Virus record (IMG/VR): IMGVR_UViG_3300039916_000019
Coordinates: 1 to 41,590 of that record
Reading direction: 5' to 3' (one strand)
Length of the DNA stretch: 41,590 nt
Origin: a virus
Taxonomy: Duplodnaviria > Caudoviricetes
Under the pieces are notes generated by a model. It was not told the origin of the DNA and did no database searches. It saw only the letters and a list, made by a program, of their open reading frames with translations. Below are positions 1 through 41,590 of the stretch, piece after piece. Numbering within the stretch: the stretch's first letter is position 1; each line of letters starts with the position of its first letter. Made by a program: the position numbers and the translations under genes.

Positions 1-369
1 ATGGACAACGAGATCGCTGGAGACATGGAAGAGCTGCCAGGGCTGGCTAGGGTGAACATTCCAGAGGCCGACCTGGTGGTGCTGGAGCGCGCGGCGCGTG
101 CGATTGGCGCGGTGCGCGTTGAGGTGGTCGATGGCGAGGGATACGTCAACTTATACTTCGCAGACGGCTTTATCTTGCACAGCTGGAATCCGCTCACGTT
201 CAGCGGCGACGCCCTCGATCTTGCCGTGCGGCTTCGACTTGAGATTTACATTCACGAGCAGGACACCACCGCGATGACCGCAGATCTCAAATTGGCCAAC
301 GAGCCGCACTGCGACGACGCCGGTGCAGCCACCCGCCGGGCAATCACTCGCGTCGCGGGTGATGTCTAG
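1..369 (+). CDS. hypothetical phage protein
   Basis: 122 aa ORF; WNPL..GDAL.LAV and C-terminal RRAITR resemble small conserved phage proteins; converges on the methylase gene with a 4-nt overlap. Confidence 0.55.
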   Translation: MDNEIAGDMEELPGLARVNIPEADLVVLERAARAIGAVRVEVVDGEGYVNLYFADGFILHSWNPLTFSGDALDLAVRLRLEIYIHEQDTTAMTADLKLANEPHCDDAGAATRRAITRVAGDV

Positions 370-1154
370 AATAAGCCGGCAGGTTCAGCAGTACGATCCC
401 AGCTGTAAATGATGACTTCATTTCGCTCAGCGCCGCGGCCACCCCCTCCTACCGTGTAGGTGATCGGGACGGTGTCCATCTGAAAGTCTGCAAAGATTCG
501 GCGGATGTCGGGGTGATCGTTCAAACTGACAATGGCTTTTCCCTTCAAGTGCCCCATCATCGAGGCCATCTTCTCGTACTCCTCCAAACCGAAGTCAACG
601 CCGTAGCCCGCTGTCTCCCAGTAAGGTGGATCCAGATAGAACAGCGTATGGGGTCTGTCGTATCGATCCATCAGCTTCGCCCAGTCCATGTTCTCGATAT
701 AGGCGCCGGATAGCCGTAGGTGTGCGGCCGACAAATTTTCTTCGATCCGAAGTAGGTTGATGGGCGGTGCGGTTGTGGCTGTGCCCCAGGACTGCCCTTC
801 CACCTTCCCGCCAAAAGCGTGCTGCTGCAGATAGAAAAAACGCACTGCACGCTGAATGTCGGTCAGCGTGTCAGGCGGCGTCTCCTGGTGCCACTTGAAC
901 ACCTCGCGACTGGCCAATGCCCATTTGAAGTGGCGCACGAATTCTTCGAGGTGGTGTTGCACGACCCGGTACAGGCGTACCAGCTCGCCGTTGATGTCGT
1001 TGATGACCTCGACTTTTGCAGGTGATCGGAGAAAGTAGAGAGCGGCGCCGCCGGCAAACACTTCTACGTAGCAATCGTGAGCGGGGAACTGAGGAAAGAT
1101 ATGATCGGCTAGGCGTCTTTTGCCACCAAGCCAGGGGACGATTGGATTTGCCAT
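366..1154 (-). CDS. dam: DNA adenine methyltransferase (Dam/D12 class)
   Basis: PWLGGKRRL, YVEVFAGG (SAM binding), EVINDIN, YLDPPY catalytic motif. Confidence 0.93.
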   Translation of the reverse strand: MANPIVPWLGGKRRLADHIFPQFPAHDCYVEVFAGGAALYFLRSPAKVEVINDINGELVRLYRVVQHHLEEFVRHFKWALASREVFKWHQETPPDTLTDIQRAVRFFYLQQHAFGGKVEGQSWGTATTAPPINLLRIEENLSAAHLRLSGAYIENMDWAKLMDRYDRPHTLFYLDPPYWETAGYGVDFGLEEYEKMASMMGHLKGKAIVSLNDHPDIRRIFADFQMDTVPITYTVGGGGRGAERNEVIIYSWDRTAEPAGLF

Positions 1155-24633: not shown

Positions 24634-25092
24634 TCAGACTCTTAGCAAAACGTCTACCCTGTCCTGGACCGGCTGATCTAGAAGTTCGCTCGCGCCTGCA
24701 AGAACGCTTCGAGTCGAACTATCGCCAGCATTGAACGAGAAGCTCTTGCCCGTATGCAGGCAATGGAGAGTAAAAACACGACCTTGCCAGCTCAAATCGA
24801 AGCGAACGACTACATGAAAACCAGGCAGATTCTCTTCTTCTGGGTCGGAAAAATGTATCTTCATCGCAAATGGAAGATGTGTCCGGGCCTCAATCTCCGG
24901 GCGACCTTGCAGGAACGCGCCGTCTTTCGACCAAGTGCCTAAATGACAAACCGTCCAATTCTGCCCGCTGATTGACTGCAAGTAACCCGCAAGGTTGTCT
25001 ACAAACTTTTCCATCTCGCTGGCGCGCTCTACTTCCAGCTCAAGCCTTCGGGCCACATCCGTGCGAATCCTGCTGTAAAGCGATGTATCCAT
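24634..25092 (-). CDS. hypothetical protein (moron)
   Basis: GGAGGA RBS before MDTSLYS; lower GC; flanked by terminators. Confidence 0.6.
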   Translation of the reverse strand: MDTSLYSRIRTDVARRLELEVERASEMEKFVDNLAGYLQSISGQNWTVCHLGTWSKDGAFLQGRPEIEARTHLPFAMKIHFSDPEEENLPGFHVVVRFDLSWQGRVFTLHCLHTGKSFSFNAGDSSTRSVLAGASELLDQPVQDRVDVLLRV

Positions 25093-25143
25093 ACATCCTC
25101 CTGTCAAAAGAATGCATTGTAGTAGCTCTATTCCATACCGACC

Positions 25144-25169
25144 AAAAAAAGCCCGCTTTATAGCGGGCT
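25144..25169 (-). terminator. tR'-like terminator
   Basis: GCCCGCT-ATAA-AGCGGGC followed by T7, about 40 nt downstream of the late promoter. Confidence 0.8.
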
Positions 25170-25207
25170 CAACTTTTTTTGGACGCACAGACTCGCCCAG
25201 TGCGTGC

Positions 25208-25236
25208 AGTCTACAAAAAATACAGCCGTGTTGCAA
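25208..25236 (-). promoter_or_regulatory. late promoter pR'-like
   Basis: TTGCAA-17 bp-TAGACT overlapping the end of the Q-like gene. Confidence 0.75.
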
Positions 25237-25639
25237 CGTGTTTCCGTAGCTTGTTTTCCAGTTCGTCGCGCGCCGCAGCGAGCGTAGTGCCGAAGTCGGC
25301 GTTTGGAAACCGCCACGCTGTGGACAACCCTTGGCTCTTATAGATCGTCCAACGGTGCAACGAAGAAAGGCTGTGGACCATTGCGTCTACAGCCTCGCCG
25401 ATCTTCAGGTCGGAAGAGCGCTGCGCCTCGTGAACGTCCTTGCTGGTCAAGCCGTCGCCGGTCAGCTTCATGCCGCCCGCACCCAAGTCGCGGTCGTCGG
25501 AGCGCATGAAGTCGACCCAGCAAGCAAGCAGAAGCGCATAGGGTTCTGGCTTATCAAAAGTCTCTATGGCCACTTGGTCGCGACGAACACGACGGAGGGG
25601 CGATCCGTTAAAGATGCCAAGCATTGCGGTGGCGGACAT
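25211..25639 (-). CDS. putative late antiterminator (Q-like)
   Basis: W..FM N-terminal motif, sigma4-like C-terminus (VDAMVHSL...A...L), and the adjacent pR'/tR' arrangement. Confidence 0.65.
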   Translation of the reverse strand: MSATAMLGIFNGSPLRRVRRDQVAIETFDKPEPYALLLACWVDFMRSDDRDLGAGGMKLTGDGLTSKDVHEAQRSSDLKIGEAVDAMVHSLSSLHRWTIYKSQGLSTAWRFPNADFGTTLAAARDELENKLRKHVATRLYFL

Positions 25640-25863
25640 GGTGTTCTCCTGTGAATAAACCCAGCTATTTTCAGGGTTCCAACAGGAAATTTCTTAATAA
25701 CATCAATAAATATTTTATGTTGTGCTTTAGCTTACACAGTGAAGGCCCTTCTAGACCTACTTGCCAGACTGCCATGTGCTACGATGGCAACTCCGAGTAC
25801 AGTCCTGAGTAATTCGAGCTTTACACTTTGGGCATCTCACACTCACCTCTCATATCGAAAAAG

Positions 25864-26628
25864 ATGCCTTCTAATATCGGCCATAACTGCTTTACCCCAC
25901 CAAGTAACCCTGAAGTAAAAATTTGGAGATACATGGATTTCACCAAGTTTGTATCGATGCTTGAGACGAGTTCCTTGTTCCTCTCGCGAGCAACTGAATT
26001 CGAAGACCCGTACGAGGGTTCGTGGCCACGTGCAAATCGAGATCCTCAAGCATTGCTCAAGATTGGAGTTCCCGAAACTCTCGATTTAAGCGGCATGTCA
26101 GAAATGTCTCGGTCGATGCGCTACTGGACTTACGTCAATTGCTGGCACATGAACGAGCGAGAATCAGCTGCAATGTGGAAGCTTTACGCAAAGACTGATG
26201 AGGCAGTAGCGATTCAATCCACATACACTAGATTACACAACTGTTTGCCTGACAAAAGCTATATTGGAGTAGTGAATTACATCGATTATGAAAATCAGAT
26301 GATTCCGTTCGACAACGTATTCTGGCCTTATACTCATAAGCGCTTATCGTTTGAACACGAAAGAGAGCTACGGGTAATTGAAGTGGATTTTCCTTCCTCA
26401 GCTGCAGTGGCTGCCGCGAAGGCTGCCAATCTACAAACGTCAGACTGGGAAAGAGAAACTCCCAAGGGGAAGCTGATCAATATTGAAATCAAACAGCTAA
26501 TCGAGGCGGTGTACGTTTCGCCTACAGCACCACCATGGTTTTTCGATCTCGTTGAAGCTGTTGTCAACCGTTACAAATGCGGGTTTAACGCTAAACAGTC
26601 CGACATGGCTCGCACTCCAATTTTCTAA
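25864..26628 (+). CDS. DUF2971-like protein (candidate defence moron)
   Basis: IWRYM, F.DPYEG, VNCW...ESAAMWKLY, KR..F.HERE.R; low GC; opposite strand to the operon. Confidence 0.75.
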   Translation: MPSNIGHNCFTPPSNPEVKIWRYMDFTKFVSMLETSSLFLSRATEFEDPYEGSWPRANRDPQALLKIGVPETLDLSGMSEMSRSMRYWTYVNCWHMNERESAAMWKLYAKTDEAVAIQSTYTRLHNCLPDKSYIGVVNYIDYENQMIPFDNVFWPYTHKRLSFEHERELRVIEVDFPSSAAVAAAKAANLQTSDWERETPKGKLINIEIKQLIEAVYVSPTAPPWFFDLVEAVVNRYKCGFNAKQSDMARTPIF

Positions 26629-26891
26629 CCAGACGTTGTCACAGCACGGGCTCAAGATAATTCAAATATTTTGAAACGCCAGGCCATTGGCCACGACGCG
26701 CGCTTTTTTGAGCAAACTCGGCAGGCTTTGGGCAGGTAATCTCAACTGATCGTTAATCAAGCCTAGAGCATAGGTATATGAGCACGATTTGACGCTCGGT
26801 GTCACATTTGTGACATTAAATTGGCTAGCAGATTAGTGACCAAGGTATGCTAAGCGGCTACGCTAGGCCGCTAAATATAGTCGAAGGTAAA

Positions 26892-27473
26892 ATGGAAAAC
26901 GTGAGAGATTTAAATTTGGATAGCTCGAAACGCACAATGCGAGCTCTTTCATACGGAATAAGCACTCCCGACGATCTAATGGAAAAGCTCCGCCTAGATG
27001 CGGCTAAACTTGAAGGTGTCCCCGCCCCCTACGATATTTTTAATTTCATCGTTACAGCCGCAGTCCTTGCTGAATGGGTAGAGCAATATTACTCCGAAAG
27101 CGAGAGGTCGGCACAATTTCGCATAGCCACCAGAAAGCAAAAGTGGGTGATCCCAGAAATATCAGAGGAATGGATTTCCGATTCCTCTTGCATTCCTAAT
27201 ATCCATAGCGGCGTTGATCGCAACATAATTAATTGCCTTTCAATTTGCATCTACACCGCAAATGCAAGCAAGCATTTCCACTGGAGAGATAATGGAGCTA
27301 TTAATTCAATTGGTGAGTCCCCCCCAATCGAAGATGCATATCAGTATTTCTTCACCTCAACAGATCCAGACATATACGTCGAGTTCCATGGAGAGAATTA
27401 TGGAATCAAGCAAATTAGAGGGATATTACTGCAATTTTTTTCAGGCTTAATAGCGCATCTAAAATCCGGATAG
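26892..27473 (+). CDS. hypothetical helical protein, HEPN-like
   Basis: TP.DL.EKL, FNF.VTA..L.EW, ANASKH; low GC. Confidence 0.6.
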   Translation: MENVRDLNLDSSKRTMRALSYGISTPDDLMEKLRLDAAKLEGVPAPYDIFNFIVTAAVLAEWVEQYYSESERSAQFRIATRKQKWVIPEISEEWISDSSCIPNIHSGVDRNIINCLSICIYTANASKHFHWRDNGAINSIGESPPIEDAYQYFFTSTDPDIYVEFHGENYGIKQIRGILLQFFSGLIAHLKSG

Positions 27474-27680: not shown

Positions 27681-28718
27681 TTACGCGCCACTTTCGCGCC
27701 GCATCATCCCGGTATTCGCGCCGATTTGATTCTGCGCACGCGCGGCAAGGTCGAGGTTCTTTTCCAGATAGCCCATCGTGGTGACCGGGCTCTTGTGGCG
27801 CATCACGCGCTGGATCGTCTGCACCGGTACGCCAGCCTCGGACAGCAGCGTGGCGAACGTGCCGCGCAGTCGGTGCGGCGTGATGCCCTTGAGCGAGCAC
27901 GATGAGTTCGCTTTGCGCATGACCTGGCGCGCGAAGCCCGACTGGAACTCTTTGCCATCTTCCCGTACGACTATCAGCCCCTGGGCTTGGCGCAGCGGCT
28001 CAAGGTGTTCGACCAGCCAGGCCGGCATCGGTACCGGCTCGGCCTCCCTGCCCTTCGTAATTCCAGGCGTGTATGTCGCGCGCTGCCAGTCGACCCATTC
28101 CCACCGTGCCGACGCGCATTCGCTCTCGCGCAGGCCCAGGCCAAACATCATGCGTACGGCGGTGGCCACGGCAGGCGTGCGCTTGGCCGCATCGTCGACG
28201 GCATCGAACCAAGCTCGGGCCACATCCAGTGCCAGAGTTGCGCGCGGCCGCTTTTGAACCTTGAGCATCGACACGCGCCACGGCGCCGCCGCCAGCGTGC
28301 CGCGCTTGACCGCCCACATGGTCAGCAGTTTCAGGATGCGCAGCCAGTGGTTCGCGCTGGCCGGCTTGTGGTCCTGCAGATGCAGGTTGCGCGCCAGCTC
28401 GACGTCGGCGGTGGTGATGCTGTCTATCGCCTTGGAGCCCAGGTCATACATGTGCAGGCGCCGGAACGTGTCCACGCTGCGAATGTGGGCAGCGCTGGCC
28501 ACAGGCCGGTGCACCACGATCCATACTTCGATCAGCTGCTCGAGAGTCGGTACCGGCTGGCCGCCGTTGGCGCGCACCACGGCCGCTTCATATTCCTGCT
28601 CGGCCTTCTTCTCGGCGAGCCGCCGGTTTCTCATCCTGGTGCTGCGCTGGACGCGCGCGCCACCGACCTGGAAGCGGTAGTGCCAGATATCGCCCTTCTT
28701 GAAAACGTTCGCGCTCAT
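27681..28718 (-). CDS. tyrosine recombinase (second, non-terminal)
   Basis: arm-binding-like WHYRF...RST; catalytic R (GLRESE), K, HRLR, H (RHKS) and Y (TTMGY) all present. Confidence 0.9.
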   Translation of the reverse strand: MSANVFKKGDIWHYRFQVGGARVQRSTRMRNRRLAEKKAEQEYEAAVVRANGGQPVPTLEQLIEVWIVVHRPVASAAHIRSVDTFRRLHMYDLGSKAIDSITTADVELARNLHLQDHKPASANHWLRILKLLTMWAVKRGTLAAAPWRVSMLKVQKRPRATLALDVARAWFDAVDDAAKRTPAVATAVRMMFGLGLRESECASARWEWVDWQRATYTPGITKGREAEPVPMPAWLVEHLEPLRQAQGLIVVREDGKEFQSGFARQVMRKANSSCSLKGITPHRLRGTFATLLSEAGVPVQTIQRVMRHKSPVTTMGYLEKNLDLAARAQNQIGANTGMMRRESGA

Positions 28719-32112: not shown

Positions 32113-32304
32113 TTACTGCGACTGAGGCGCAGGTGGCGAATCCTGCGGTACAGGTAGCGGGAATACGTCAGGATGAGCGAGACGCACGCGCGGAGGAATT
32201 CCCCTCTCCTTCCAATTCTGGACGCGCTGCACGCTACAGCCGAGACGGGCGGCGATTCTAGTCGCTCCGCCCAAGCTGTCGATGAGGTCTTTATCAGAAG
32301 ACAT
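32113..32304 (-). CDS. cro: Cro-like repressor
   Basis: LIDSLGGATRIAARLGCSVQRVQNWKERGIP HTH, divergent from cI. Confidence 0.88.
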   Translation of the reverse strand: MSSDKDLIDSLGGATRIAARLGCSVQRVQNWKERGIPPRVRLAHPDVFPLPVPQDSPPAPQSQ

Positions 32305-32336: not shown

Positions 32337-32405
32337 ATTAAACACCATGTTTAACTCGGGTGTCAACACTATGTGTAACACACCTTGTTTAGTTCAACCG
32401 ATAAT
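32337..32405. promoter_or_regulatory. OR operators with pR and pRM
   Basis: TTAAACA-CCA-TGTTTAA (32338-54), GTCAACA-CTA-TGTGTAA (32362-78), TAACACA-CCT-TGTTTAG (32376-92); pR TTGACA-18-TTTAAT on the minus strand; GATAAT at 32400-05. Confidence 0.8.
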
Positions 32406-32412
32406 CACGCGC

Positions 32413-33132
32413 ATGCACAAACAAATGGAACGGCTTTACCAAGCCGGGTTGGAATTGAAAGGCATTGGCACTCAGGCCGAGCTGGCGCGCGCCCTGAACC
32501 AGTCGTCGCAAACGGTGAAGAATTGGGAGTCTCGCGGAATTTCGATGGCAGGGATGGTTAAGGCTCAGTCAGCTATAGGCTGCTCGGCAACATGGCTTGA
32601 GTCGGGCGCTGGCCCTATGACACACGACCCCGCGCACAGCACCACTGCGGCTGAGGCAATCGCACTCGTGCCGGGCGCACGACTAGTGCACGCCTCAGGC
32701 CCAGACGATTCGACTATGACGCAGATCAAGAAGGTTCGACTGCGCGTCCAGGCCGGGATAACAGGCTTTCAGGTAGACCCGGAATATCACGATGGCGAAA
32801 CGCAGGGTGTGCCAACGAAATGGGTTCTGCGCGAAGGGTTGCGTCGGGACTCACTGCTGGCGATTGTTGTGCGCGGAGACAGTATGGAGCCTGGTATGCA
32901 CGACGGGGATACCATTGTAGTTAATACAGCCGATAAGACGCTTGTATCTGGGTCAGTTTACGTCGTGAATTATGAAGGCGAGGCTGTTGTAAAGCGTATG
33001 CTGCGCGATGCCGGCCAGTGGTGGCTAACTTCCGATAATTCCGATCAGCGCAAATATCACCGGCAATTATGCAAAGGTGCTGAGTGTATTGTGATCGGAA
33101 AAGTTATCCGCAAAGAAAGCACACACATCTAA
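32413..33132 (+). CDS. cI: CI repressor (HTH plus S24 autopeptidase)
   Basis: TQAELARAL..S.QTV.NWE HTH; AG cleavage site (VQAG), GDSM Ser and VKR Lys. Confidence 0.93.
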   Translation: MHKQMERLYQAGLELKGIGTQAELARALNQSSQTVKNWESRGISMAGMVKAQSAIGCSATWLESGAGPMTHDPAHSTTAAEAIALVPGARLVHASGPDDSTMTQIKKVRLRVQAGITGFQVDPEYHDGETQGVPTKWVLREGLRRDSLLAIVVRGDSMEPGMHDGDTIVVNTADKTLVSGSVYVVNYEGEAVVKRMLRDAGQWWLTSDNSDQRKYHRQLCKGAECIVIGKVIRKESTHI

Positions 33133-33138
33133 ACCGTC

Positions 33139-33567
33139 ATGAATATATTTGAAGGAAGTCGACGTGCTTTATATGCGATAACTGCGCTAACTATCGTTTT
33201 CACGATATGGGTAGCATGGCAGCATGAGCCATATATTGAAGCAGGATTATATCAAGTAGTGTCGTCAGGCAATGCTGTACCTGTAAGCACTTGCCCAAGC
33301 CCGGCCGGGTACAGAGTAAATGCAGGGATTTCCCGTGCGGAAGTCATGCTTACTCTTTGCGGTGACGAGGATTCTAGAGGAGTACGTCTCGAGAAACCTG
33401 AATTAGCTCGCCTGGAAGGGATAGTCGCTTCAGAACGGATTGAAAAATCCAAGGGGTTTGGCTCGCAAGTCGTTGTCACCCTAGTTGGGCTTTGGATGGT
33501 TTCTTGGACTATCGGCTGGATCGCGAGAGGTTTTGCCGGAATTCCGCGCGGTCAAGATAAAAAATAA
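33139..33567 (+). CDS. two-TM membrane protein co-transcribed with cI
   Basis: N- and C-terminal TM helices, loop with two Cys; starts 6 nt after the cI stop. Confidence 0.7.
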   Translation: MNIFEGSRRALYAITALTIVFTIWVAWQHEPYIEAGLYQVVSSGNAVPVSTCPSPAGYRVNAGISRAEVMLTLCGDEDSRGVRLEKPELARLEGIVASERIEKSKGFGSQVVVTLVGLWMVSWTIGWIARGFAGIPRGQDKK

Positions 33568-33588
33568 CCCCCGCTGTGGCGGGGGATT
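33565..33588. terminator. hairpin between convergent genes
   Basis: CCCCCGC-TGTG-GCGGGGG. Confidence 0.6.
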
Positions 33589-33602: not shown

Positions 33603-34586
33603 TCAGGCGCCGTCAAAGGGCAGGCTTTTTTGTCCATATACCTTCTCTGCAATATATTTTTCATACTCCTCCCTTGATTCTGAGACCATTGCGATACCGG
33701 TGATCTTACCCACCTGCGTACGTAATGCTTTTACCCCAATCTCCGACAAAAATTGATGGATTTTGTCGCCTTTTTCACCATTTGCTTGCTTGCTCGATTT
33801 CGCCAAGCTAAACACCTTACCATTGCTTCGCGCAAGAGGCTTATAGATATGGTCAATCGTAAGATAACGGAATTCCCACGGACGGCCACGTTCTGGCTTG
33901 GTCAAGCCATATAGCCTGTACCACTGTTCGTATAAATCTGGTGAGAACTCTTTTTCGTATTCCCTAGCTTCTTCTGCAACATAAAGTTTGTACGCTGCAA
34001 TAACTTCTTCTTTGGTGCGGTCGTAACCAGCGAGAGCGTATACAAGCCCTTCAATACCTGCTTTAGCAGATGCTCCCAAAATAATACGGGCCTGCTTTAC
34101 AACGCCAAGTTGTCGTTCCGTCAAGTCACCTTCGGCTCGCATAATAGCTTGACAGACGTCAATCAGAATTGTAGCGTCAAATCCATAAATGACTGTTGAA
34201 GGTTGCTGTCCTGCGCCAGCTTTTGCCCACTGAAAAATTAGGGGTTTTTCTAACTTTTCTTTGAGCTCCGCACCAATATGCTTGGACATTCCCTTTGTAG
34301 ATAGGAATCGCGGGAAGGAGCTACTGCGGCTAGATAACCCGAGCACCGTACCCATTCCGATTTGGCTGATTACAGCCGTCTTTTTTTGATCCTGCAACAC
34401 GTAGCACTCGACATCGATACCAAACTCTTCCCTAAAGTTCCCTTTGTGAATCGTTTGTGCCGGCCTAGTCCCCCAGCGTGCAGCCGCAGCCTTTTTAGCG
34501 ATTGCTGATTTCGCGACCGGCGATAATGAGTTAGCACGGGCAATCCCGCCAGCGGCTTTCGATTGGTCCTTCTTCCTGGTCACCAT
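33603..34586 (-). CDS. P63C-domain protein
   Basis: GGIARA.SLS...IAKKAAAARW, ECYVL, W/YEKEF...Y, K.HQFL. Confidence 0.8.
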   Translation of the reverse strand: MVTRKKDQSKAAGGIARANSLSPVAKSAIAKKAAAARWGTRPAQTIHKGNFREEFGIDVECYVLQDQKKTAVISQIGMGTVLGLSSRSSSFPRFLSTKGMSKHIGAELKEKLEKPLIFQWAKAGAGQQPSTVIYGFDATILIDVCQAIMRAEGDLTERQLGVVKQARIILGASAKAGIEGLVYALAGYDRTKEEVIAAYKLYVAEEAREYEKEFSPDLYEQWYRLYGLTKPERGRPWEFRYLTIDHIYKPLARSNGKVFSLAKSSKQANGEKGDKIHQFLSEIGVKALRTQVGKITGIAMVSESREEYEKYIAEKVYGQKSLPFDGA

Positions 34587-34673
34587 GCAAGCATCCCGAT
34601 TAGTTTATGTGCTTGCATCCTAGCACGCTCCAACTGCCATGTGCAAGCATAAATAGCTTTGCTAATGCTTGCA
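34586..34673. promoter_or_regulatory. two TGCAAGCA-N16-TGCTTGCA inverted repeats
   Basis: copies at 34586-34617 and 34642-34673. Confidence 0.7.
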
Positions 34674-34948
34674 TTGTGTCGCTGAGCTGATCGAAATTGG
34701 ATAGACCACGGAACGTGTGTCACTGACGCACTCACTTTACTGAGGTAAGCCTCCATGCGCAGACTCTGATCTAGATCGACAGTCTGGCGCTACCGTAGAA
34801 CATAGCATCCATGCGGGTCTGAGCCCAGTTTGACGCAGTTTGCACGTTACTTGGCGCTGGCCACCAGGACGCGCACGCAGGCCATTTTTCGTCCGTAGCT
34901 CCACCCGGCTGTCCCAAGTAAACCGATACGCACATCTTCAAGCAGATA

Positions 34949-34990
34949 TTAAACATAGTGTTGACTTCTTGAATAAACATGGTGTTTAAT
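34949..34990 (+). promoter_or_regulatory. OL operators and pL
   Basis: TTAAACA-TAG-TGTTGAC (34949-65) and ATAAACA-TGG-TGTTTAA (34973-89) match the OR consensus; TTGACT-18-TTTAAT. Confidence 0.8.
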
Positions 34991-35043
34991 ATCCGAGTCG
35001 CGACCGAACTCAGCACCCGCTAAGTGGCCGACTGGAGACCAGC

Positions 35044-35193
35044 ATGAAGTCATTCCTTATCACTGCCCGTACATCAACCGTATGCATCACCTTCAGTGCG
35101 TTGGCCCGTTCCAGCGCCGAAGCGGCCGAGCTGACGATTGAACTGCTGGGCGATCTTCCGTGCGGCGTCACCGTCGTGGCCGGAGTGCGCTGA
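35044..35193 (+). CDS. small hypothetical protein (49 aa), first pL gene
   Basis: GGAGA RBS, MKSFLITART..., TGATG overlap with the next gene. Confidence 0.6.
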   Translation: MKSFLITARTSTVCITFSALARSSAEAAELTIELLGDLPCGVTVVAGVR

Positions 35194-35396
35194 TGGCCGC
35201 GGCGCGCCAGCTGCAGGACCAACCGGACAGGGCCGCGCTGGAGGTCGCCCACCGGATTCTGCGCACGCCCACCCCGCTTGATGAACTGCTGCAGCACCCC
35301 GCCTTTGAACTGGTGCTGAACACACTGGCGCGTCGGCACATGAAGCGGCGCAGCCAGGTCGACGTGAAAAAGCTGCAAGCCAACGACAACGATTAA
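35193..35396 (+). CDS. hypothetical protein
   Basis: MAAARQLQD...DVKKLQAND. Confidence 0.6.
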   Translation: MAAARQLQDQPDRAALEVAHRILRTPTPLDELLQHPAFELVLNTLARRHMKRRSQVDVKKLQANDND

Positions 35397-35431
35397 CCCG
35401 CCCAACCGGGCACTACCATGAGGAAACGCCA

Positions 35432-36001
35432 ATGTTCACTTCTCTGCATGCGCTCGCAAAACAGGCGACGCTGATGATCACCATAGCCCCCGAGGGCGCC
35501 GACCAGCTGCGCGTCAATGTGACGCCGATGCCGCTCGACAGCAAGGCCAAGGCCGGCATTCCACAGCCGCTGTCACTGGTTGCCACACCGGCCGAGTTCG
35601 ACGCCGACTTCATCACCGCGCTGGGTACCTGGCAGGCGCCGAAGCGCACCCTGGTGCAGCAGGCGCAGGACGCGGCCGGCGGCGCTGCCGCTGCGCCAAC
35701 GAGCGCGGAAGCGCCGAAGTTGCCCGCGCCAAAGGAGAAGCCAAAGGCGGGCCGTAAGGCGAAGAGTGACAAGCCGACGGGCGCCGATGACGCAGACCCA
35801 AGCGGCCAGGCTGCAGCGCCTGGCGCCGATGACGGGGCACCAGGTGGCCAGGCTGGCGTCGCAGGCGACGAAGAAGCAGGTGCCGGCACCGACCAGGTCG
35901 ACACTGCCGCGCCAGCAGCTGACGAAGCGCCGGCCGCGCCGGCACCGGCGACCGCTGCGGTCGAACTGACCGCTGCCGACCTCACCCTCGACCTGTTCTA
36001 A
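35432..36001 (+). CDS. PRTRC system protein E
   Basis: MFTSL..., LRVNVTP, PLSLVATPAEFDADF, Ala/acidic linker, C-terminal LDLF. Confidence 0.85.
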   Translation: MFTSLHALAKQATLMITIAPEGADQLRVNVTPMPLDSKAKAGIPQPLSLVATPAEFDADFITALGTWQAPKRTLVQQAQDAAGGAAAAPTSAEAPKLPAPKEKPKAGRKAKSDKPTGADDADPSGQAAAPGADDGAPGGQAGVAGDEEAGAGTDQVDTAAPAADEAPAAPAPATAAVELTAADLTLDLF

Positions 36002-36011
36002 CGGAGCACCC

Positions 36012-36215
36012 ATGGACATCCAGAACCTTCAACGCGAATTCAACTATAACGGGGTCGCTCTCGCTGACCCAAGCCAGACCCTGAGCCTGCCCCAGGTGCG
36101 CGACTTCTACGCCAACGTCTACCCGGAAATCACCAGCGCCGATATCGAAGGCCCGAAGCAGGTCGGCGCTAAAGTGGTCTACACGTTCCGCCGCGCCGTC
36201 GGCACGAAAGGCTGA
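36012..36215 (+). CDS. PRTRC system protein C (ubiquitin-like)
   Basis: R.F.YNG..L.DP, VRDFYAN.YPEI..A.IEGP, ends VGTKG. Confidence 0.92.
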   Translation: MDIQNLQREFNYNGVALADPSQTLSLPQVRDFYANVYPEITSADIEGPKQVGAKVVYTFRRAVGTKG

Positions 36216-36217
36216 TC

Positions 36218-36415
36218 ATGAAGCGCGAAGCTGCCCTGGAGCGCCTGCGCGCCGGCGGACGCCTGTCCTGCGGCGCGCGCCCGGCGAATATCCTGACCGA
36301 GGAACAGGCCGACATGCCGCTTGCTCGCCAGATCTCGCGCATCGTCGCCGAGGGCGTGCGCGCCGCCGGAACACGCTGTCTGGCGCCTTCCGTGAATCAC
36401 GCGGTGCTGCCATGA
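36218..36415 (+). CDS. small hypothetical protein within the PRTRC cluster
   Basis: 65 aa, ATGA-coupled to the next gene. Confidence 0.55.
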   Translation: MKREAALERLRAGGRLSCGARPANILTEEQADMPLARQISRIVAEGVRAAGTRCLAPSVNHAVLP

Positions 36416-37461
36416 GCGCGATAATTCCCGCCTCGGTCCTGGCTCTGCCCCAGTTCGGCGCCGATGTTCCCATGAGTTACACGGTTCCCGGCGTCGACGC
36501 GATGACGATCCCGCTGACCATCGCCCTGCTTGAGGCAGGAGTGATCAGCGACGCGATGCTGCGCGCGCCGCGCAATGCGCTGCTGACCGAGGTGTTTGGC
36601 GAGACCGAGAAGCAGCTGTGCGAACGCGCGCTGGCCCACTGGTGGACTCGCCTGATCCGCGCGAACTCATGCAAGTTCTTCAGGTGGCACCTGGAAGTTA
36701 TGCAGCTCGAAACACATGGCAATTATGAGCCGGACACGACTGCCTGGTTCTGCTTCAGTCGAGTCGGCGACACCATCCCACGCTTCGCTATCGGCCGCGG
36801 CATTGAGCGCCTGGAATGCGTGCTCGAAGGATTCGGGCAAACCGTGCTGGCGGTGCTGCGCGAGGCGCTGCAGCTACTGCCCGACTCATTCACTCCATGG
36901 ATGGCGTTGGGGTTGGCTGAGTGGATGCACTGGGAAGACTCCGAAAACGATGATGAGCTCATCGCGAACTATGCCAGCAACAACGACATGCCGGTGGAAG
37001 CGGTCAATGAAGGCGACGTCCTGACCAGAGCAATCTTTTTCGCCGAATTGCCCCGTTGGGCCGGTGCGCCGCAGCAGGTTGTCTCGAGGGCCGCTATCTG
37101 CGCTGCCGGTACCGGCAAGTTCGAACAACAGGTAATCGCCGCGTGCGACGAGCTGCACTCGCTGGTAGCCCGCCCTAGTTTCATTTTGCGACCTGAAGAC
37201 AAGGGTACCTATCGATGCAGCCGCGACACGGTTGACGCTGCTGTGGTGCTGCTCTGGAAGGACAACGGAGTGGTCGGCCAGGTGATCGATGACTATCTGA
37301 ACGATCTCGGCAACAGCGGCGAGTACTGCGAATACATCGACACCAATCCGGTAACGATGACCGCCGACGGCATCAAAGAATTCCAGATCAAGACCGAGCA
37401 GGCGCTGCAGGTTGCGGTGCTGACCGAGAAACTGATTCTGCTGATTGGAGAGAAATTGTGA
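36412..37461 (+). CDS. PRTRC system protein F
   Basis: position between C and B; GFGQTVL..L, FTP...L...W motifs. Confidence 0.75.
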   Translation: MSAIIPASVLALPQFGADVPMSYTVPGVDAMTIPLTIALLEAGVISDAMLRAPRNALLTEVFGETEKQLCERALAHWWTRLIRANSCKFFRWHLEVMQLETHGNYEPDTTAWFCFSRVGDTIPRFAIGRGIERLECVLEGFGQTVLAVLREALQLLPDSFTPWMALGLAEWMHWEDSENDDELIANYASNNDMPVEAVNEGDVLTRAIFFAELPRWAGAPQQVVSRAAICAAGTGKFEQQVIAACDELHSLVARPSFILRPEDKGTYRCSRDTVDAAVVLLWKDNGVVGQVIDDYLNDLGNSGEYCEYIDTNPVTMTADGIKEFQIKTEQALQVAVLTEKLILLIGEKL

Positions 37462-38198
37462 GCCTTATTCCTGTGGATATCGTCGGCACCAACGAGACGA
37501 CCCTGCGACTGTCCAGCGCCGTGCTGATGTACGAGTCCGGGCGCGGCGACATCTATGCGACTTCGCACCAGGTGGTCCGGGACATGGACCAAGGTCGCAA
37601 CGTGATCGGCGCCGGCGTCCCGCTGTCGAAGGCAGCGCTGGCGAAGTTCGCTGGCGCGGTGGCCAAAGCGACTGCATTTGCCGGGTTCCTGCCCGAGAAC
37701 CTGCTCTACACCTCGCCAAACGTATTGGCATGGTGGGCTCCCGCGCAGGTGCGTGCCACCTGGTTCAAGAAGGCAGGCAGTGGATCCGTCGATGCGCATG
37801 GGCCGGCGGCACACCCTGCCCTGGTGTTCGTGGCCACGCCGGACGACTGGTTCGTCTTCGCGCTGTACGACAGCGCGCGCCCAGCGCCTACCACCCGCCT
37901 CTTCCACTCGCCGCACTTCAACGTATGGAAAGGCGGCCGGATCTGCACCGGCAATGTCGACCTGCCGCCGGCGCTTGGCGCCGAGGTGATCGACCGGTAC
38001 GAAGCTGCTTTCTTCCGTAGCCACTTTACGCATCCGAACCGCAGCGACGCGGTCAAGTACAAGGGCGGCATGCAGCAGCTGTGGCAAGACCAGCTGGCCA
38101 GCCCTGACCCGGAGTCGATGCGCCGTGCGCTCGTCGACTCGAAGGAAACGCTGCAAGCCGCGATCGAACGCATCGCCGGCCACCCTACCAATAACTGA
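37458..38198 (+). CDS. PRTRC system protein B (E2-like)
   Basis: ATSH, LPENLL, WWAP, SPHFNV...G.ICTG (Cys), FF.S.FTH. Confidence 0.9.
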   Translation: MSLIPVDIVGTNETTLRLSSAVLMYESGRGDIYATSHQVVRDMDQGRNVIGAGVPLSKAALAKFAGAVAKATAFAGFLPENLLYTSPNVLAWWAPAQVRATWFKKAGSGSVDAHGPAAHPALVFVATPDDWFVFALYDSARPAPTTRLFHSPHFNVWKGGRICTGNVDLPPALGAEVIDRYEAAFFRSHFTHPNRSDAVKYKGGMQQLWQDQLASPDPESMRRALVDSKETLQAAIERIAGHPTNN

Positions 38199-38213
38199 TC
38201 GAAAGAGGACATC

Positions 38214-38987
38214 ATGAACAAGACAGAATTCACCAGCCAGTTCGACGAACTGCTCAACATCACCCGATCGTCGTTCGACACGTTCCTGGCAACCGCTGAA
38301 ACCGTGTTGCGCGAGCAGCGCCCCCTGCCGCTGGCTGTTGACGAAGCCGCGGCGCCGGCCGACCTGCTGCAGCTTGACATGGCACTGCTCGCGGCTGCGC
38401 CGGTGGCCGCCGTGCCACGCCACGCGCCGTTCCACCCGCTGCAGGAAAGTGGCCACCGTTTCCTGCTGGCCGCCGACGGGCTGCACCTCGAGGTGCGCCG
38501 GCCATGGCTGCACTTTATCCACAGGCTGGCCGAGCAGACGGCCGTCGCGATCCCGTACGGTGAGGTGGAAAAGACATGCCTACTCGATTTCAAGTCGATC
38601 GGGAGTGCGCTGTCGCAGATGAAGGAATTCGCGACGAAGGCGCGCGCCGACGCGCCGATCGAGGCGGCCGCCAGCCTGCTGTGGAATCACCGCGAGCGTA
38701 CCTGGCGCATCGCGTACCCAGAGATCATTGGCGAAGCCAGCGCGAGCACGATCCAGTATGCGCAGGTCGAAGTCGGGCCCGATGAAAGCCTGGCTCTGGA
38801 CATTCACAGCCATGGCCACGCCGGCGCGTTTTTCAGCGACACGGACGATGCGGACGACCGCGGGGCCGTGAAGATTTCGGCGGTCTTCGGCAACCTCGAC
38901 AGCGACAAGCCGACGTGCGCGTTCCGCTTGTGCGTGCTGGGACTGTATATCCCGATCCCGGTGCCGGCCGAGAAAGTGTTTGGGTAA
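38214..38987 (+). CDS. PRTRC system protein A (JAB/MPN metallopeptidase)
   Basis: E (PIEAAA) and DIHSHGHAGAFFSDTDDADD (HxH-x7-S-xx-D). Confidence 0.92.
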   Translation: MNKTEFTSQFDELLNITRSSFDTFLATAETVLREQRPLPLAVDEAAAPADLLQLDMALLAAAPVAAVPRHAPFHPLQESGHRFLLAADGLHLEVRRPWLHFIHRLAEQTAVAIPYGEVEKTCLLDFKSIGSALSQMKEFATKARADAPIEAAASLLWNHRERTWRIAYPEIIGEASASTIQYAQVEVGPDESLALDIHSHGHAGAFFSDTDDADDRGAVKISAVFGNLDSDKPTCAFRLCVLGLYIPIPVPAEKVFG

Positions 38988-38991
38988 TCGC

Positions 38992-39771
38992 ATGCCGCAC
39001 ATCACGCCACCCTACATGCTGAGCCGCGCGCCGCGCATTGCCCTCATCGGCTGCGGCGGAAACGGCTCGCAGATGCTCACTGGCCTGGCCAGACTGAACC
39101 ATGCGCTCATGGCCTTGGGGCACCCGGGCCTGGATGTGCGCGTCTACGACCCGGATACCGTCAGCGAGGCCAACATGGGCCGCCAGCTGTTTGGCAGCTT
39201 CGACGTCGGCGCCAGCAAGGCGCACGTACTGGTGAACCGCATCAATGGGTTCTTCGGCCTGCGATGGGACGCAGTGTTCGGCCGGTTCGATGCGCGCGCC
39301 CACATGTACGACATCGCAATTGCATGCGTCGACAGTGCCCGGGCCCGGAACGAGATAGCGCGCCTCTTGGAAGAGCGGAACGTGAGGTATCTGATGGACT
39401 TGGGAAACCGCGCGGCGGATGGCCAGGTGCTGTTCGGCGAGTTCAATACGAACCGTGAGCTACCGGCAGGTAGCGTGGCCCTGCCCAGCCCGTACGAGGT
39501 GCTGCCTGAGCTGGTCGACCTGGCCGCGCCGGAAGACGACACGCCGAGCTGTGGCCTGGCCGAAGCGCTCGAGCGGCAGGAGCTCTTCGTGAACCAGTCG
39601 ATCGTGACGCCGGCGCTGTCGATCCTGTGGGAGTTTTTCCGGCACGGCCGCCTGACGTGGCACGGCGCCTTCGTGAACCTGCGCACTGGCAGCATGCGGC
39701 CAATGAACGTGCGCGAGCCGGCACCGGCCGCGCCGGCTGAACTGAAAATTGAATTGGAAGGGATCGTATGA
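38992..39771 (+). CDS. PRTRC system ThiF/E1-like protein
   Basis: GCGGNGS, D.DTVSEAN.GRQ, CVD, DLGN, TPSC (Cys). Confidence 0.93.
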   Translation: MPHITPPYMLSRAPRIALIGCGGNGSQMLTGLARLNHALMALGHPGLDVRVYDPDTVSEANMGRQLFGSFDVGASKAHVLVNRINGFFGLRWDAVFGRFDARAHMYDIAIACVDSARARNEIARLLEERNVRYLMDLGNRAADGQVLFGEFNTNRELPAGSVALPSPYEVLPELVDLAAPEDDTPSCGLAEALERQELFVNQSIVTPALSILWEFFRHGRLTWHGAFVNLRTGSMRPMNVREPAPAAPAELKIELEGIV

Positions 39772-40124
39772 TCGAAAGCACGAATGAACGGCGCCGCCGC
39801 CGGTGCGCTCGCGAGCGCCTCGACTGGAACGAGATCGAAAGCCTCGGTGAGCTGCACGGCTTGATCGCGAATGACGGCTACGCCGCCTCGTTCCAGGATA
39901 TGGGCCAGTACCGTAGCGCGCTGGTGCGCCATATGGGCAACCTCCTGCGGACGCTGGCTGCAGGCCAGTCGACGGTGCGCGCGTGGCGTGAGCGAATGGG
40001 CAAACCTGCCGACTGGCCACTGCATGCGCCGACAGACGTCGAGCGCGCGATGGTGGCCGAGATTGCTGAGCTGCGCGCCACCCTTGCAGGCGCACCGAAG
40101 GCATCCCCAGGAGCACAACCATGA
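39768..40124 (+). CDS. hypothetical protein
   Basis: coupled to ThiF; ANDGYAASFQDMGQYRSAL and AEIAELR motifs seen in phage early proteins. Confidence 0.6.
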   Translation: MIESTNERRRRRCARERLDWNEIESLGELHGLIANDGYAASFQDMGQYRSALVRHMGNLLRTLAAGQSTVRAWRERMGKPADWPLHAPTDVERAMVAEIAELRATLAGAPKASPGAQP

Positions 40125-40354
40125 CGCATGCACGCCTACATGCAATCGGACTCGGAATAGTGGCAGGCACGCTAGGTGGTATGGCATTTGCCGTGATCGG
40201 GGCGCTCGTTGGGCCAAGTGGACTGATTGGCTCATTGCTTCTGACAGGTGGTGGGTTTATTGGCGCAGCGCAGCTGCTCAAGCGGCGCAAACAGAGGGGA
40301 GCCCCCACCGGTCAGACCGCCGCCGAATTGATCTTCGGGAAGGACAGCGCATAA
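40121..40354 (+). CDS. small membrane protein
   Basis: two Gly-rich TM segments and a basic tail; coupled on both sides. Confidence 0.6.
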   Translation: MTHARLHAIGLGIVAGTLGGMAFAVIGALVGPSGLIGSLLLTGGGFIGAAQLLKRRKQRGAPTGQTAAELIFGKDSA

Positions 40355-40575
40355 TGGATACGTTTCTGACAACTGACGCGGTTATCAAATTGACTGGACG
40401 CAGAAGGAAGACGAAGCAGATCGAAGCGCTGCGAACGATGGGCCTGCCGTTTTGGATTAACGCAATTGGAGAGCCGGTCGTCACTATCGCCGCAGTCGAA
40501 GGGCGTAAAGAGGAACCGCGCGAGAAGGCATGGATAATGCCAAGGCGGAATGATGGGAAGAAAAAACACGCGTAA
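40354..40575 (+). CDS. xis: excisionase-like (DUF4224)
   Basis: FLT...I.LTGRRR..KQIEALR.MG.PF.INA.G.P.V; overlaps int. Confidence 0.8.
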   Translation: MDTFLTTDAVIKLTGRRRKTKQIEALRTMGLPFWINAIGEPVVTIAAVEGRKEEPREKAWIMPRRNDGKKKHA

Positions 40576-41590
40576 TTTGAACATGCCGCCGCACATGCAT
40601 CCACGGACGCAGCGCAGCGGCAAGACTTACTACTATATGTACAAGAAGGACGACGCCCGCAAGCGGATAGAAATAGCCCTCGGCGACGATTTCATACTAG
40701 CGTTGAAGAAATATGCCGAGCTGAATGTCGTAGTGGATGCAGGGGCCGGTGCGACGTTCACTGACGTATACAAACGCTATTTGGTCGATGCGCTGCCGAA
40801 GCTGGCGGCCAGCTCGGCAAAGATGTGGCGATCGGACATCAAGCACTTGCTTGCAGCATTCAACGACGCGCCGCTAAGCCAGATCAGGCCAGTAAACATT
40901 CGCCACTTTCTTGATGATCACGCAGATACGCCGACCACCGCAAACCGATGCAAGCGTGTCTTTTCGGTCATGTGGAACAAGGCCAGGGGGTGGGGCTATA
41001 CCGATCTGCCGAATCCGTGCGAAGGGATTCAAGGGCACTCGCTTGGAAAGCGCACGGTCTACATCACCGATGCTATCTTCGAAGCAGTATGGGCAAGCGC
41101 GAGCGTCCCCCTCCGCGATGCCATGGATCTTGCGTATCTCACCGGCCAGCGACCTGCAGATGCCCTCAAGATGACCGAGCATGACATCATTGATGGACAC
41201 TTAATCGTGACCCAGGAGAAAACGAAACAGCCGCTGCGCATCAAGATCATCGGACAGCTGTCCACGCTACTCGATCGCATCGCAGCTCGCAAGGCAGGGT
41301 ACAAGGTAAAAACTGCCGCACTACTGGTCAATCTAAGTGGGAAGCGACTGACGGCGCCTGCACTACGCGCGCAGTTCGACAAGGCGCGAACGGCGGCGGC
41401 CGTTGCCGTGCCAGACCTGGCGGAAGAGATCAAACAGATGTGGTTCTACGACCTGCGCGCGAAGGCGGCCGATGACACGGCGGACGACCTGGGCGACCAG
41501 GCAGCGAGCAATTTACTAGGGCACGAAAATGTCCAGACGACTCGCCGACACTACCTGAGGCGGGGCAAAATCGTCGCCCCTACGAAGTGA
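40550..41590 (+). CDS. int: prophage integrase (tyrosine recombinase)
   Basis: LTGQR..D, QEKT, YDLRAK, LGH, TT.RHY. Confidence 0.93.
   Translation: MMGRKNTRNLNMPPHMHPRTQRSGKTYYYMYKKDDARKRIEIALGDDFILALKKYAELNVVVDAGAGATFTDVYKRYLVDALPKLAASSAKMWRSDIKHLLAAFNDAPLSQIRPVNIRHFLDDHADTPTTANRCKRVFSVMWNKARGWGYTDLPNPCEGIQGHSLGKRTVYITDAIFEAVWASASVPLRDAMDLAYLTGQRPADALKMTEHDIIDGHLIVTQEKTKQPLRIKIIGQLSTLLDRIAARKAGYKVKTAALLVNLSGKRLTAPALRAQFDKARTAAAVAVPDLAEEIKQMWFYDLRAKAADDTADDLGDQAASNLLGHENVQTTRRHYLRRGKIVAPTK

Follow-up and report, generated by a model that had tools for sequence, protein, structure and literature searches.

In 2006, Iyer, Burroughs and Aravind predicted five classes of bacterial operons that combine E1-like, E2-like and JAB proteins, including one named 6d (PMC1779556), and for several of these classes protein conjugation has since been demonstrated, on the host side. 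The Bil (BilABCD), CBASS Cap2/Cap3 and Bub systems likewise consist of an E1, an E2, a JAB peptidase and a modifier whose glycine is exposed by JAB cleavage. Bil uses a thioester relay, whereas Bub forms oxyesters. These are host-side systems, with anti-phage activity shown for Bil and CBASS and presumed for Bub. In contrast, the set analysed here is encoded by a phage. It is a PRTRC (ParB-related, ThiF-related cassette) with the gene order E-C-F-B-A-ThiF, in the provirus record IMGVR_UViG_3300039916_000019 (Duplodnaviria; Caudoviricetes). The window, i.e., the whole stretch of DNA analysed, is this entire IMG/VR record of 41.6 kb (completeness of 94% according to CheckV). On balance, our results favour an early-lytic pathway of ubiquitin-like (Ubl) conjugation under the control of CI and pL. 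Our literature search, which consisted largely of papers available without subscription, found no experimental study of class 6d or PRTRC.

All six proteins scored above the curated cut-offs of the TIGRFAM PRTRC models, a search proposed in a preliminary description of the window, and Pfam matches extended across the cassette (Prok_Ub, alpha-hel2, Prok-E2_D, DUF2016 with Prok-JAB, and ThiF). The six open reading frames (ORFs) were found closely packed on the + strand, where that description had placed them, and a seventh gene, Cx, was missing from its list:

35432..36001, +, PRTRC E, 189 amino acids (aa), predicted adaptor (TIGR03741, 65 bits, cut-off 38)
36012..36215, +, PRTRC C, Ubl of 67 aa that ends in KG, no extension (TIGR03738, 97.5 bits, cut-off 46; PF14454)
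36218..36415, +, Cx, 65 aa, putative split-off C-terminal extension of the Ubl precursor (likeness to fused extensions)
36412..37461, +, PRTRC F, 349 aa, mainly helical (TIGR03742, 99 bits, cut-off 58; PF14456)
37458..38198, +, PRTRC B, E2-like (Prok-E2_D), Cys163 and His192 (TIGR03737, 203 bits, cut-off 131; PF14460)
38214..38987, +, PRTRC A, JAB-N and JAB metallopeptidase (E150, H198, H200, S208, D211; TIGR03735, 208 bits, cut-off 102)
38992..39771, +, PRTRC ThiF, E1-like adenylyltransferase, 259 aa, Cys187 (TIGR03736, 309 bits, cut-off 145)

ThiF is numbered from its likely ATG start (38992); the ORF finder started it at a TTG (38980). The motifs reported earlier were all recovered: C has 67 residues and ends in VGTKG-stop, ThiF has the GxGGxG loop (GCGGNG at residue 20) and TPSC187, B has IC163TG in addition to HFTH192, and the HxH-x7-S-xx-D of A is intact (H198-S-H200-x7-S208-xx-D211). 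The ratio of non-synonymous to synonymous substitution rates (dN/dS) against five relatives was 0.07-0.52 across the seven cassette genes. The guanine-cytosine (GC) content of the cassette is that of the operon (0.62-0.67, against 0.47-0.50 in the adjoining moron region). The ParB model (TIGR03734) had no match in the window, and ParB_N matched in none of 45 carriers (10 of 14 in the control). PRTRC D (TIGR03739) gave no match in the window, but its control matched nowhere either. Judged by these profiles and ratios, the cassette is an intact member of PRTRC, or class 6d, that lacks ParB and is under purifying selection. The PRTRC identity given in the preliminary description was thus right, but the absence of ParB had gone unremarked.

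The following features of class 6d are present at this locus: a stand-alone Ubl with a terminal glycine, a JAB with a JAB-N domain and its conserved Arg and Trp, an E1-like protein that lacks rhodanese and is encoded beside the JAB gene, an E2-like protein with a cysteine and a downstream histidine, and a helical protein (F) that diverges quickly and in which charged residues are conserved. In its available text, the 2006 account is a prediction only, lists bacterial genomes and makes no mention of protein E or of an early operon in a phage (PMC1779556). Proteins E and F have no counterpart in Bil, CBASS Cap2/Cap3 or Bub. BilD is described as having a zinc site and an adenylation domain that is inactive (PMC10557695), whereas the 259-aa ThiF of the window consists of a ThiF domain only, with no rhodanese and no CxxC zinc motif. 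Among the PADLOC 2023 models of E1-E2 proteins, only weak matches to residues 12-89 of ThiF were found, and the NCBIfam model 6A-MBL cap2_3 scored 27 bits against a cut-off of 320; the presence of Bil and Bub models in these libraries was not checked. The PRTRC of plasmids (NCBIfam TIGR03734-TIGR03742) differs from that of the window, which lacks ParB and lies between CI/pL and xis-int. Plasmid pB1902 of Ralstonia insidiosa, for example, encodes ParB-E-C-x-F-B-A-ThiF, an order that the window shares from E onwards, including the small gene after C.

The regulation of the cassette was analysed from the region that separates it from the cro-like gene and CI, and from the remainder of the left operon:

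32113..32304, -, cro-like repressor (weak Pfam matches to YdaS/P22_Cro)
32337..32391, OR, three operators (32339-32353, 32363-32377, 32377-32391) over a pR-like TTGACA-N18-TTTAAT (32366-32337, - strand)
32413..33132, +, CI repressor with a helix-turn-helix and an S24 peptidase domain (PF00717, E 2e-21; PF07022, weak)
34950..34990, +, OL, two operators (34950-34964, 34974-34988) over a pL-like TTGACT-N18-TTTAAT (34961-34990)
35044..35193, +, leader ORF o1, 49 aa, no family, conserved in relatives
35193..35396, +, leader ORF o2, 67 aa (phrog_6236, function unknown)
39768..40354, +, two small ORFs after ThiF (118 aa, 77 aa), no named family
40354-40575, +, xis-like gene, DUF4224 (NCBIfam/Pfam scans)
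40550-41590, +, tyrosine integrase, which closes the left operon (NCBIfam/Pfam scans)

The pL-like and pR-like sites have the same layout, TTGAC(T/A)-N18-TTTAAT, in an inverted match of 42 nt with 81% identity (32337-32378 and 34949-34990). The palindrome TAAACA-N3-TGTTTA matched the window seven times at up to three mismatches (chance mean of 3.7), and its five best matches (0-2 mismatches) were all at OR (32339, 32363, 32377) or OL (34950, 34974). A scan for terminator-like sites on the + strand found none from pL to int. Since the pL-like site is flanked by operators of the OR type, repression by CI in the lysogen is likely. We then ranked the match between OR and the pre-cassette region across 30 distinct loci with BLAST hits for both CI and E, counting ties in favour. 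In 24 of the 30, the locus's own OR region was among the top three of 30 matches to its own CI-to-E region, where about three are expected, and it was strictly first in 11. The matched operator sequences vary from phage to phage. This match between OR and the region before the cassette, which holds across immunity types, is new in this analysis. In the relatives' contigs from two public runs, the cassette was kept and the immunity region was exchanged up to 35034.

A few results count against CI control. A generic promoter scan of the window picked neither pL nor pR, and the -10 element of pL lacks the consensus A at position 2. Six of the 30 loci fell outside the top three, including the window itself (rank 4), which is likely due to loci L013, L014 and L044 having its operator type. 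Even so, CI control is well supported by the anatomy of the region, and we regard it as very probable that the cassette is under CI/pL control, repressed in the lysogen and expressed early upon infection or induction. The placement in a left early operon flanked by CI operators, as first described, is borne out by the operators and the promoter-like layout. The cassette does not lie "directly" downstream of pL, as 442 nt and two small ORFs intervene; o1 had a dN/dS of 0.07-0.14 in four of five pairs and of 0.67 in the remaining one.

ThiF relatives were found in 42 viral and 23 genome loci. In 40 of the viral and 20 of the genome loci, BLAST recovered all of C, F, B, A and ThiF, in identical order wherever found. 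The curated phage set contained the cassette in the isolated phages Dina (NC_055026; two records), YO105_4 and BgVeeders33, and RefSeq names all six PRTRC genes in Dina. These loci and isolates exclude that the cassette is unique to this phage. Its novelty had been overstated, as it was already deposited with Dina and is in print for phage AB2. In most phage relatives ThiF was 61-97% identical to that of the window, and 459 plasmid records had a ThiF match, all below 60% identity. Judged by this spread over viral loci, genome loci and isolated phages, the cassette is a recurring accessory module of a group of betaproteobacterial temperate phages. In the Ralstonia phages Dina and YO105_4 and the Burkholderia phages BgVeeders33 and AB2, all of them temperate, the genes follow the same order and lie in the left arm. 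ThiF is 57-65% and C 64-66% identical to the window in Dina, YO105_4 and BgVeeders33. The C of Dina and BgVeeders33 is a precursor of 129 aa, whereas that of the window is pre-matured. A 2026 paper reports AB2 with ParB and, in its available part, reads the locus as a "partition cassette" and leaves ubiquitin unmentioned (PMC13366799); the window has no ParB. ThiF is directly followed in some carriers by a primase-like or RusA-like gene (L031:10782-11558, L038:10645-11481), so that genes of DNA metabolism adjoin the cassette and differ from phage to phage. The named genomes with the closest ThiF relatives belong to Massilia, Janthinobacterium and Duganella, and for this reason the host of the phage is likely a member of the Oxalobacteraceae.

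In our reading of the alignments, no other indirect sign of Ubl chemistry is as strong as the conservation pattern of C. The RRxxGxKG motif was kept in all 57 distinct relatives. Beyond KG, five of them stop, four add 1-7 residues and 48 add 62-152 aa, and these long extensions fall in seven groups unlinked by BLAST. In BilA, an invariant glycine precedes a freely varying tail, and BilC cleaves after this glycine (PMC10557695). By this analogy, the constant glycine of C and its freely varying extension point to maturation by JAB. Cx is 46-63% identical to the extension that is fused behind KG in 15 relatives, and this polymorphism of the Ubl precursor, with the extension as a separate gene in this phage, is new here. 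Because C needs no maturation in the window and A is intact, deconjugation is a likely role of A in this phage; A may otherwise be inherited from the fused state. The preliminary description spoke of a complete write-and-erase system. The E1-E2-JAB-Ubl set is indeed intact, but "erase" goes too far, since the JAB may mainly mature C, as was proposed for modifier maturation by the JAB of Type I Bub (PMC11601596). In four loci (L018, L020, L046, L053), C carries another extension, unrelated to the first, and a homologue of Cx comes next as a separate gene. The Ubl thus seems to serve as a cleavable leader of whichever small gene lies behind it.

The residues expected for catalysis are invariant or nearly so. 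Cys163 and His192 of B were both present in 60 of 60 distinct relatives. In A, the residues E150, H198, H200, S208 and D211, and also R95, R96 and W98 of the JAB-N domain, were found in 61 of 61. The PSC motif of ThiF, whose gene adjoins that of A, was found in 63 of the 65 loci, the two misses lying at contig ends. A profile of ThiF matched Uba1, NEDD8-E1, UBA6 and SUMO-E1 in the PDB (E 1.6e-6 to 5e-4), and MoeB with E 6e-3; PDB sequence searches with A and with the single ThiF sequence gave nothing significant. Some of the structural evidence argues less well for conjugation. The alignment of ThiF to solved E1s stops before Cys187, so it is the conservation of this residue that speaks for its catalytic role. 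PDB searches with profiles or sequences of C and B gave no significant match, and the beta-grasp fold of C and the E2 fold of B are taken from Pfam and from the available text of Iyer et al. (PMC1779556). By analogy with the systems described above, we consider it likely that ThiF, B, A and C form a pathway of covalent protein conjugation.

Protein E has an alpha-beta-beta-beta-alpha N-terminal domain (residues 1-82; model pLDDT, the predicted local-distance difference test score, of 84), a linker of about 100 aa rich in Ala, Pro, Gly and Asp, and the tip DLTLDLF. Linker length is highly variable, and E proteins have about 150-300 aa. Foldseek found no match to the N-terminal domain. The best VIA match was T7 Gp1.2 (Z 6.2, root-mean-square deviation of 4.0 over 70 residues), followed by double-stranded RNA-binding domains (Z ≤ 4.6). 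We read these matches as common topology, and a Rad52/RecT-like annealing function of E found no support.

We analysed the tip of E in 148 of 150 representatives drawn from a search of 1.8 billion proteins, excluding two that were shorter than 110 aa. The form phi-[DESNQT]-[LIM]-F was found in 75 of the 148, in one of 439 background phage ORFs and in none of 108 F proteins. Forms led by Q (QDSLF, QVSLF, QPNLF, QMSLV) were present in 13 of the 148 tails, compared with a mean of 0.46 and a maximum of three in shuffles. The consensus for clamp binding is Q-phi-x-L-F (bioRxiv 10.64898/2026.05.27.728225). The E of the window has the phi-x-L-F core (LDLF, at the end of the low-complexity linker) and lacks the glutamine at position 1, i.e., its acidic-LF tip on a disordered tether resembles a clamp-like motif without its glutamine, which is new here. 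Several points weigh against a clamp-binding tip. At position 1, 38 of the 75 tips have T, 15 have E and just three have Q, the window tip being TLDLF, and replacing this position with alanine clearly weakens clamp binding, according to the part of the study available (bioRxiv 10.64898/2026.05.27.728225). The pattern was written after the sequences had been seen. No clamp encoded by the phage was found in the 45 carriers, which rules out that this clade encodes its own. Other tips differ, such as the Ralstonia-type LDLPI and the GGLFGGTPLVG tail of plasmid pB1902, and because of these the tip of E could instead be an SSB-tail-like (single-stranded DNA-binding protein) or an intra-system docking motif.

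Protein F was modelled with a pLDDT of 90 as mostly helical, and its residues E134, W173, W281 and E338 were invariant in 100 aligned rows. Foldseek found no match to the model in the PDB, which is no proof of a new fold. The best structural matches had Z 4.3 (VIA) and E 4e-3 with a template-modelling score (TM) of 0.35 (BFVD, an uncharacterised phage protein). Its neighbours in the ESM Atlas, at 0.88, were under the trust level of the tool (some PF22977, 159/256 features). F is a candidate E3-like or substrate-binding subunit.

These elements can be combined in a mechanism that follows general E1/E2 chemistry. Inactivation of CI would open pL, and the cassette would be expressed early upon infection or induction. 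ThiF would adenylate Gly67 of C with ATP and carry it as a thioester on Cys187, as expected from Bil and CBASS Cap2/Cap3. By the chemistry of E1/E2/JAB systems, C would then be transferred to Cys163 of B, with His192 nearby, and B would form an isopeptide with a lysine of the target. A would cleave after KG, maturing the fused precursors of the relatives, and may remove the tag in this phage. The weakest steps are those of F, which would supply target specificity, and of E, which would tether the enzymes by its folded N-terminal domain, disordered linker and acidic-LF tip, the latter docking on a host hub, most likely the beta sliding clamp. The clamp or replisome is a tentative candidate for the target of conjugation. 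In a fuller version, which we find doubtful, temperate phages of Oxalobacteraceae and Burkholderiaceae would use E as a clamp-docking adaptor and place the Ubl tag on the host beta clamp, or on clamp-bound replication and repair proteins, to redirect them to phage DNA in place of Red. If true, such clamp tagging would be a virus-side bacterial counterpart of PCNA ubiquitylation.

The preliminary description had the cassette in the place of Red recombination genes, a comparison for which the position of Red in lambda is the reference. In related phages, RecT/RecE lie 3-6 kb behind CI, i.e., in the same slot as the cassette. We found no match to YqaJ, RecT, ERF, Rad52 or AAA_24 in the window; YqaJ and RecT were found in none of 44 carriers, and ERF, Rad52 and AAA_24 in none of 45. 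In a set of 59 loci selected by CI-likeness, of which 50 were searched and the nine shortest left out, PRTRC occurred in five loci, YqaJ in 13 and RecT in 12, and PRTRC overlapped with neither of the two: 15 of the 45 non-carriers had YqaJ or RecT, against none of the five carriers. Among near-complete records the counts were 10 of 17 non-carriers and none of 20 carriers (Fisher p 5.6e-5, uncorrected for kinship). The position of the cassette and its exclusion of Red-type genes are real, and the exclusion is new here. This pattern would suit a cassette that substitutes for Red or RecET by remodelling host recombination or nuclease proteins, thereby allowing recombination and rolling-circle replication without a recombinase of its own. 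We regard such a role as quite unlikely. The statistics ignore kinship, none of the arms with the o1/o2 leader genes carries RecET, and the exclusion may stem from two arm lineages and limited packaging space. Moreover, in L099, L128, L131 and L144 the stretch between o1/o2 and int contains neither the cassette nor RecET, which counts against the reading we favour as well. As at least four related arms carry neither module, the cassette is accessory and its strict functional replacement of Red is rejected; the position, with no Red-type genes around, is what stands of "in place of Red".

Its accessory nature would also fit a role in counter-defence with the same conjugation chemistry, where C or A intercepts host immunity based on E1/E2/JAB (CBASS Cap2/Cap3, Bil, Bub), or host defence proteins are tagged with C and disabled. 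Lambdoid left operons often carry host-takeover genes. Among the large genes F evolves fastest (23-45% identical in distant relatives, against 50-72% for ThiF), and PRTRC B was described as a recurrent hotspot of variation in a prophage of Phocaeicola (bioRxiv 10.64898/2026.10.01.756045, available part). Yet, a decoy would not need six genes, the same set lies beside ParB on plasmids (see the plasmid records above), and only in its ATP-binding part does ThiF resemble the CBASS E1-E2 models (best E 4e-8), which makes counter-defence unlikely. The membership of the E1 in the ThiF family could instead indicate that C is a sulfur carrier (a ThiS/MoaD-like thiocarboxylate), or an activated donor in the modification of small molecules or nucleic acids. 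F would then be the enzyme that carries out the modification, and no protein would be tagged; F has conserved charged and aromatic residues, and Iyer et al. suggested an enzyme (PMC1779556, available text). This is improbable given that the set still includes an E2-like protein whose Cys and His are invariant, that no rhodanese, cysteine desulfurase or biosynthetic gene was found among the scanned ORFs of the operon, and that the other E1+E2+JAB classes so far tested conjugate proteins, according to the available text of the studies (PMC11601596, PMC11601603, PMC10557695). A function in lysogeny, either in partition or maintenance, as read for AB2, or as an anti-phage moron expressed by the prophage, is suggested by the ParB gene that the cassette follows on plasmids and that is reported for AB2 (PMC13366799), and by the anti-phage activity of related E1/E2 classes. 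It is very improbable here: the carriers lack ParB_N and the window TIGR03734, the phage encodes an integrase and its record is classed as a provirus, the cassette lies behind CI-type operators with a GC content like the operon rather than the moron region, and E, C, F, B and A are all without a match among the PADLOC models. A partition role is rejected for this phage clade by the absence of ParB_N in all 45 carriers, and the locus speaks against the published interpretation of the cassette as a partition system in this clade.

The early-lytic conjugation pathway thus remains the reading we favour. The locus is a compact, ParB-free version of the system, with the glycine of its Ubl ready-exposed and an on-switch at CI/pL, in phages of environmental, Massilia-type hosts, and these traits make the question of conjugation directly testable. 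If conjugation is confirmed, this would show that phages use ubiquitin-like tagging, and do not only suffer it. The cassette itself was already deposited and partly in print; what this analysis adds is its setting behind CI/pL in phages of different immunity types, the polymorphism of the Ubl precursor, its exclusion of Red-type genes and the lead given by the tail of E.

In three related phages whose loci gave no hit for PRTRC or RecET (L101, L106 and L136), the left arm has a long ParB-like gene in the slot behind CI. Components of diversity-generating retroelements, a reverse transcriptase and Avd, were found in left arms of CI-related phages that lack PRTRC (L113:13961-15397, L130:14446-14793).

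The window as a whole has a lambdoid layout: head and tail genes are followed by a replication module (DnaB and DUF1376), cro, CI with its S24 domain, a low-GC moron stretch and the left operon, which terminates in the DUF4224 xis-like gene and the tyrosine integrase. A second tyrosine recombinase (27681-28718, -, phrog_1, E 2e-47) lies directly downstream of dnaB in the right operon, and is also found in relatives' contigs from the public runs X2, X3 and X5. Right behind CI, in a rex-like slot, a gene of 142 aa with two hydrophobic stretches (33139-33567) had no match in the family scans, and a terminator-like hairpin (33568-33585) directly follows it. The next gene encodes a P63C-domain protein (33603-34680, - strand) and has its own repeated palindromes TGCAAGCA/TGCTTGCA at 34585-34674, which suggests separate regulation; the C-terminus of this protein, QKSLPFDGA, presumably resembles a clamp-binding motif. 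A gene at 366-1154 (-) encodes what we take, by the look of its translation, to be a DNA adenine methyltransferase. Finally, a low-GC island (24634-27473) contains a match to PADLOC PDC-S31 (25861-26625, E 1.6e-18) and an unassigned gene of 208 aa (26847-27473). Relatives have other DNA in its place, and its genes are candidate defence morons.

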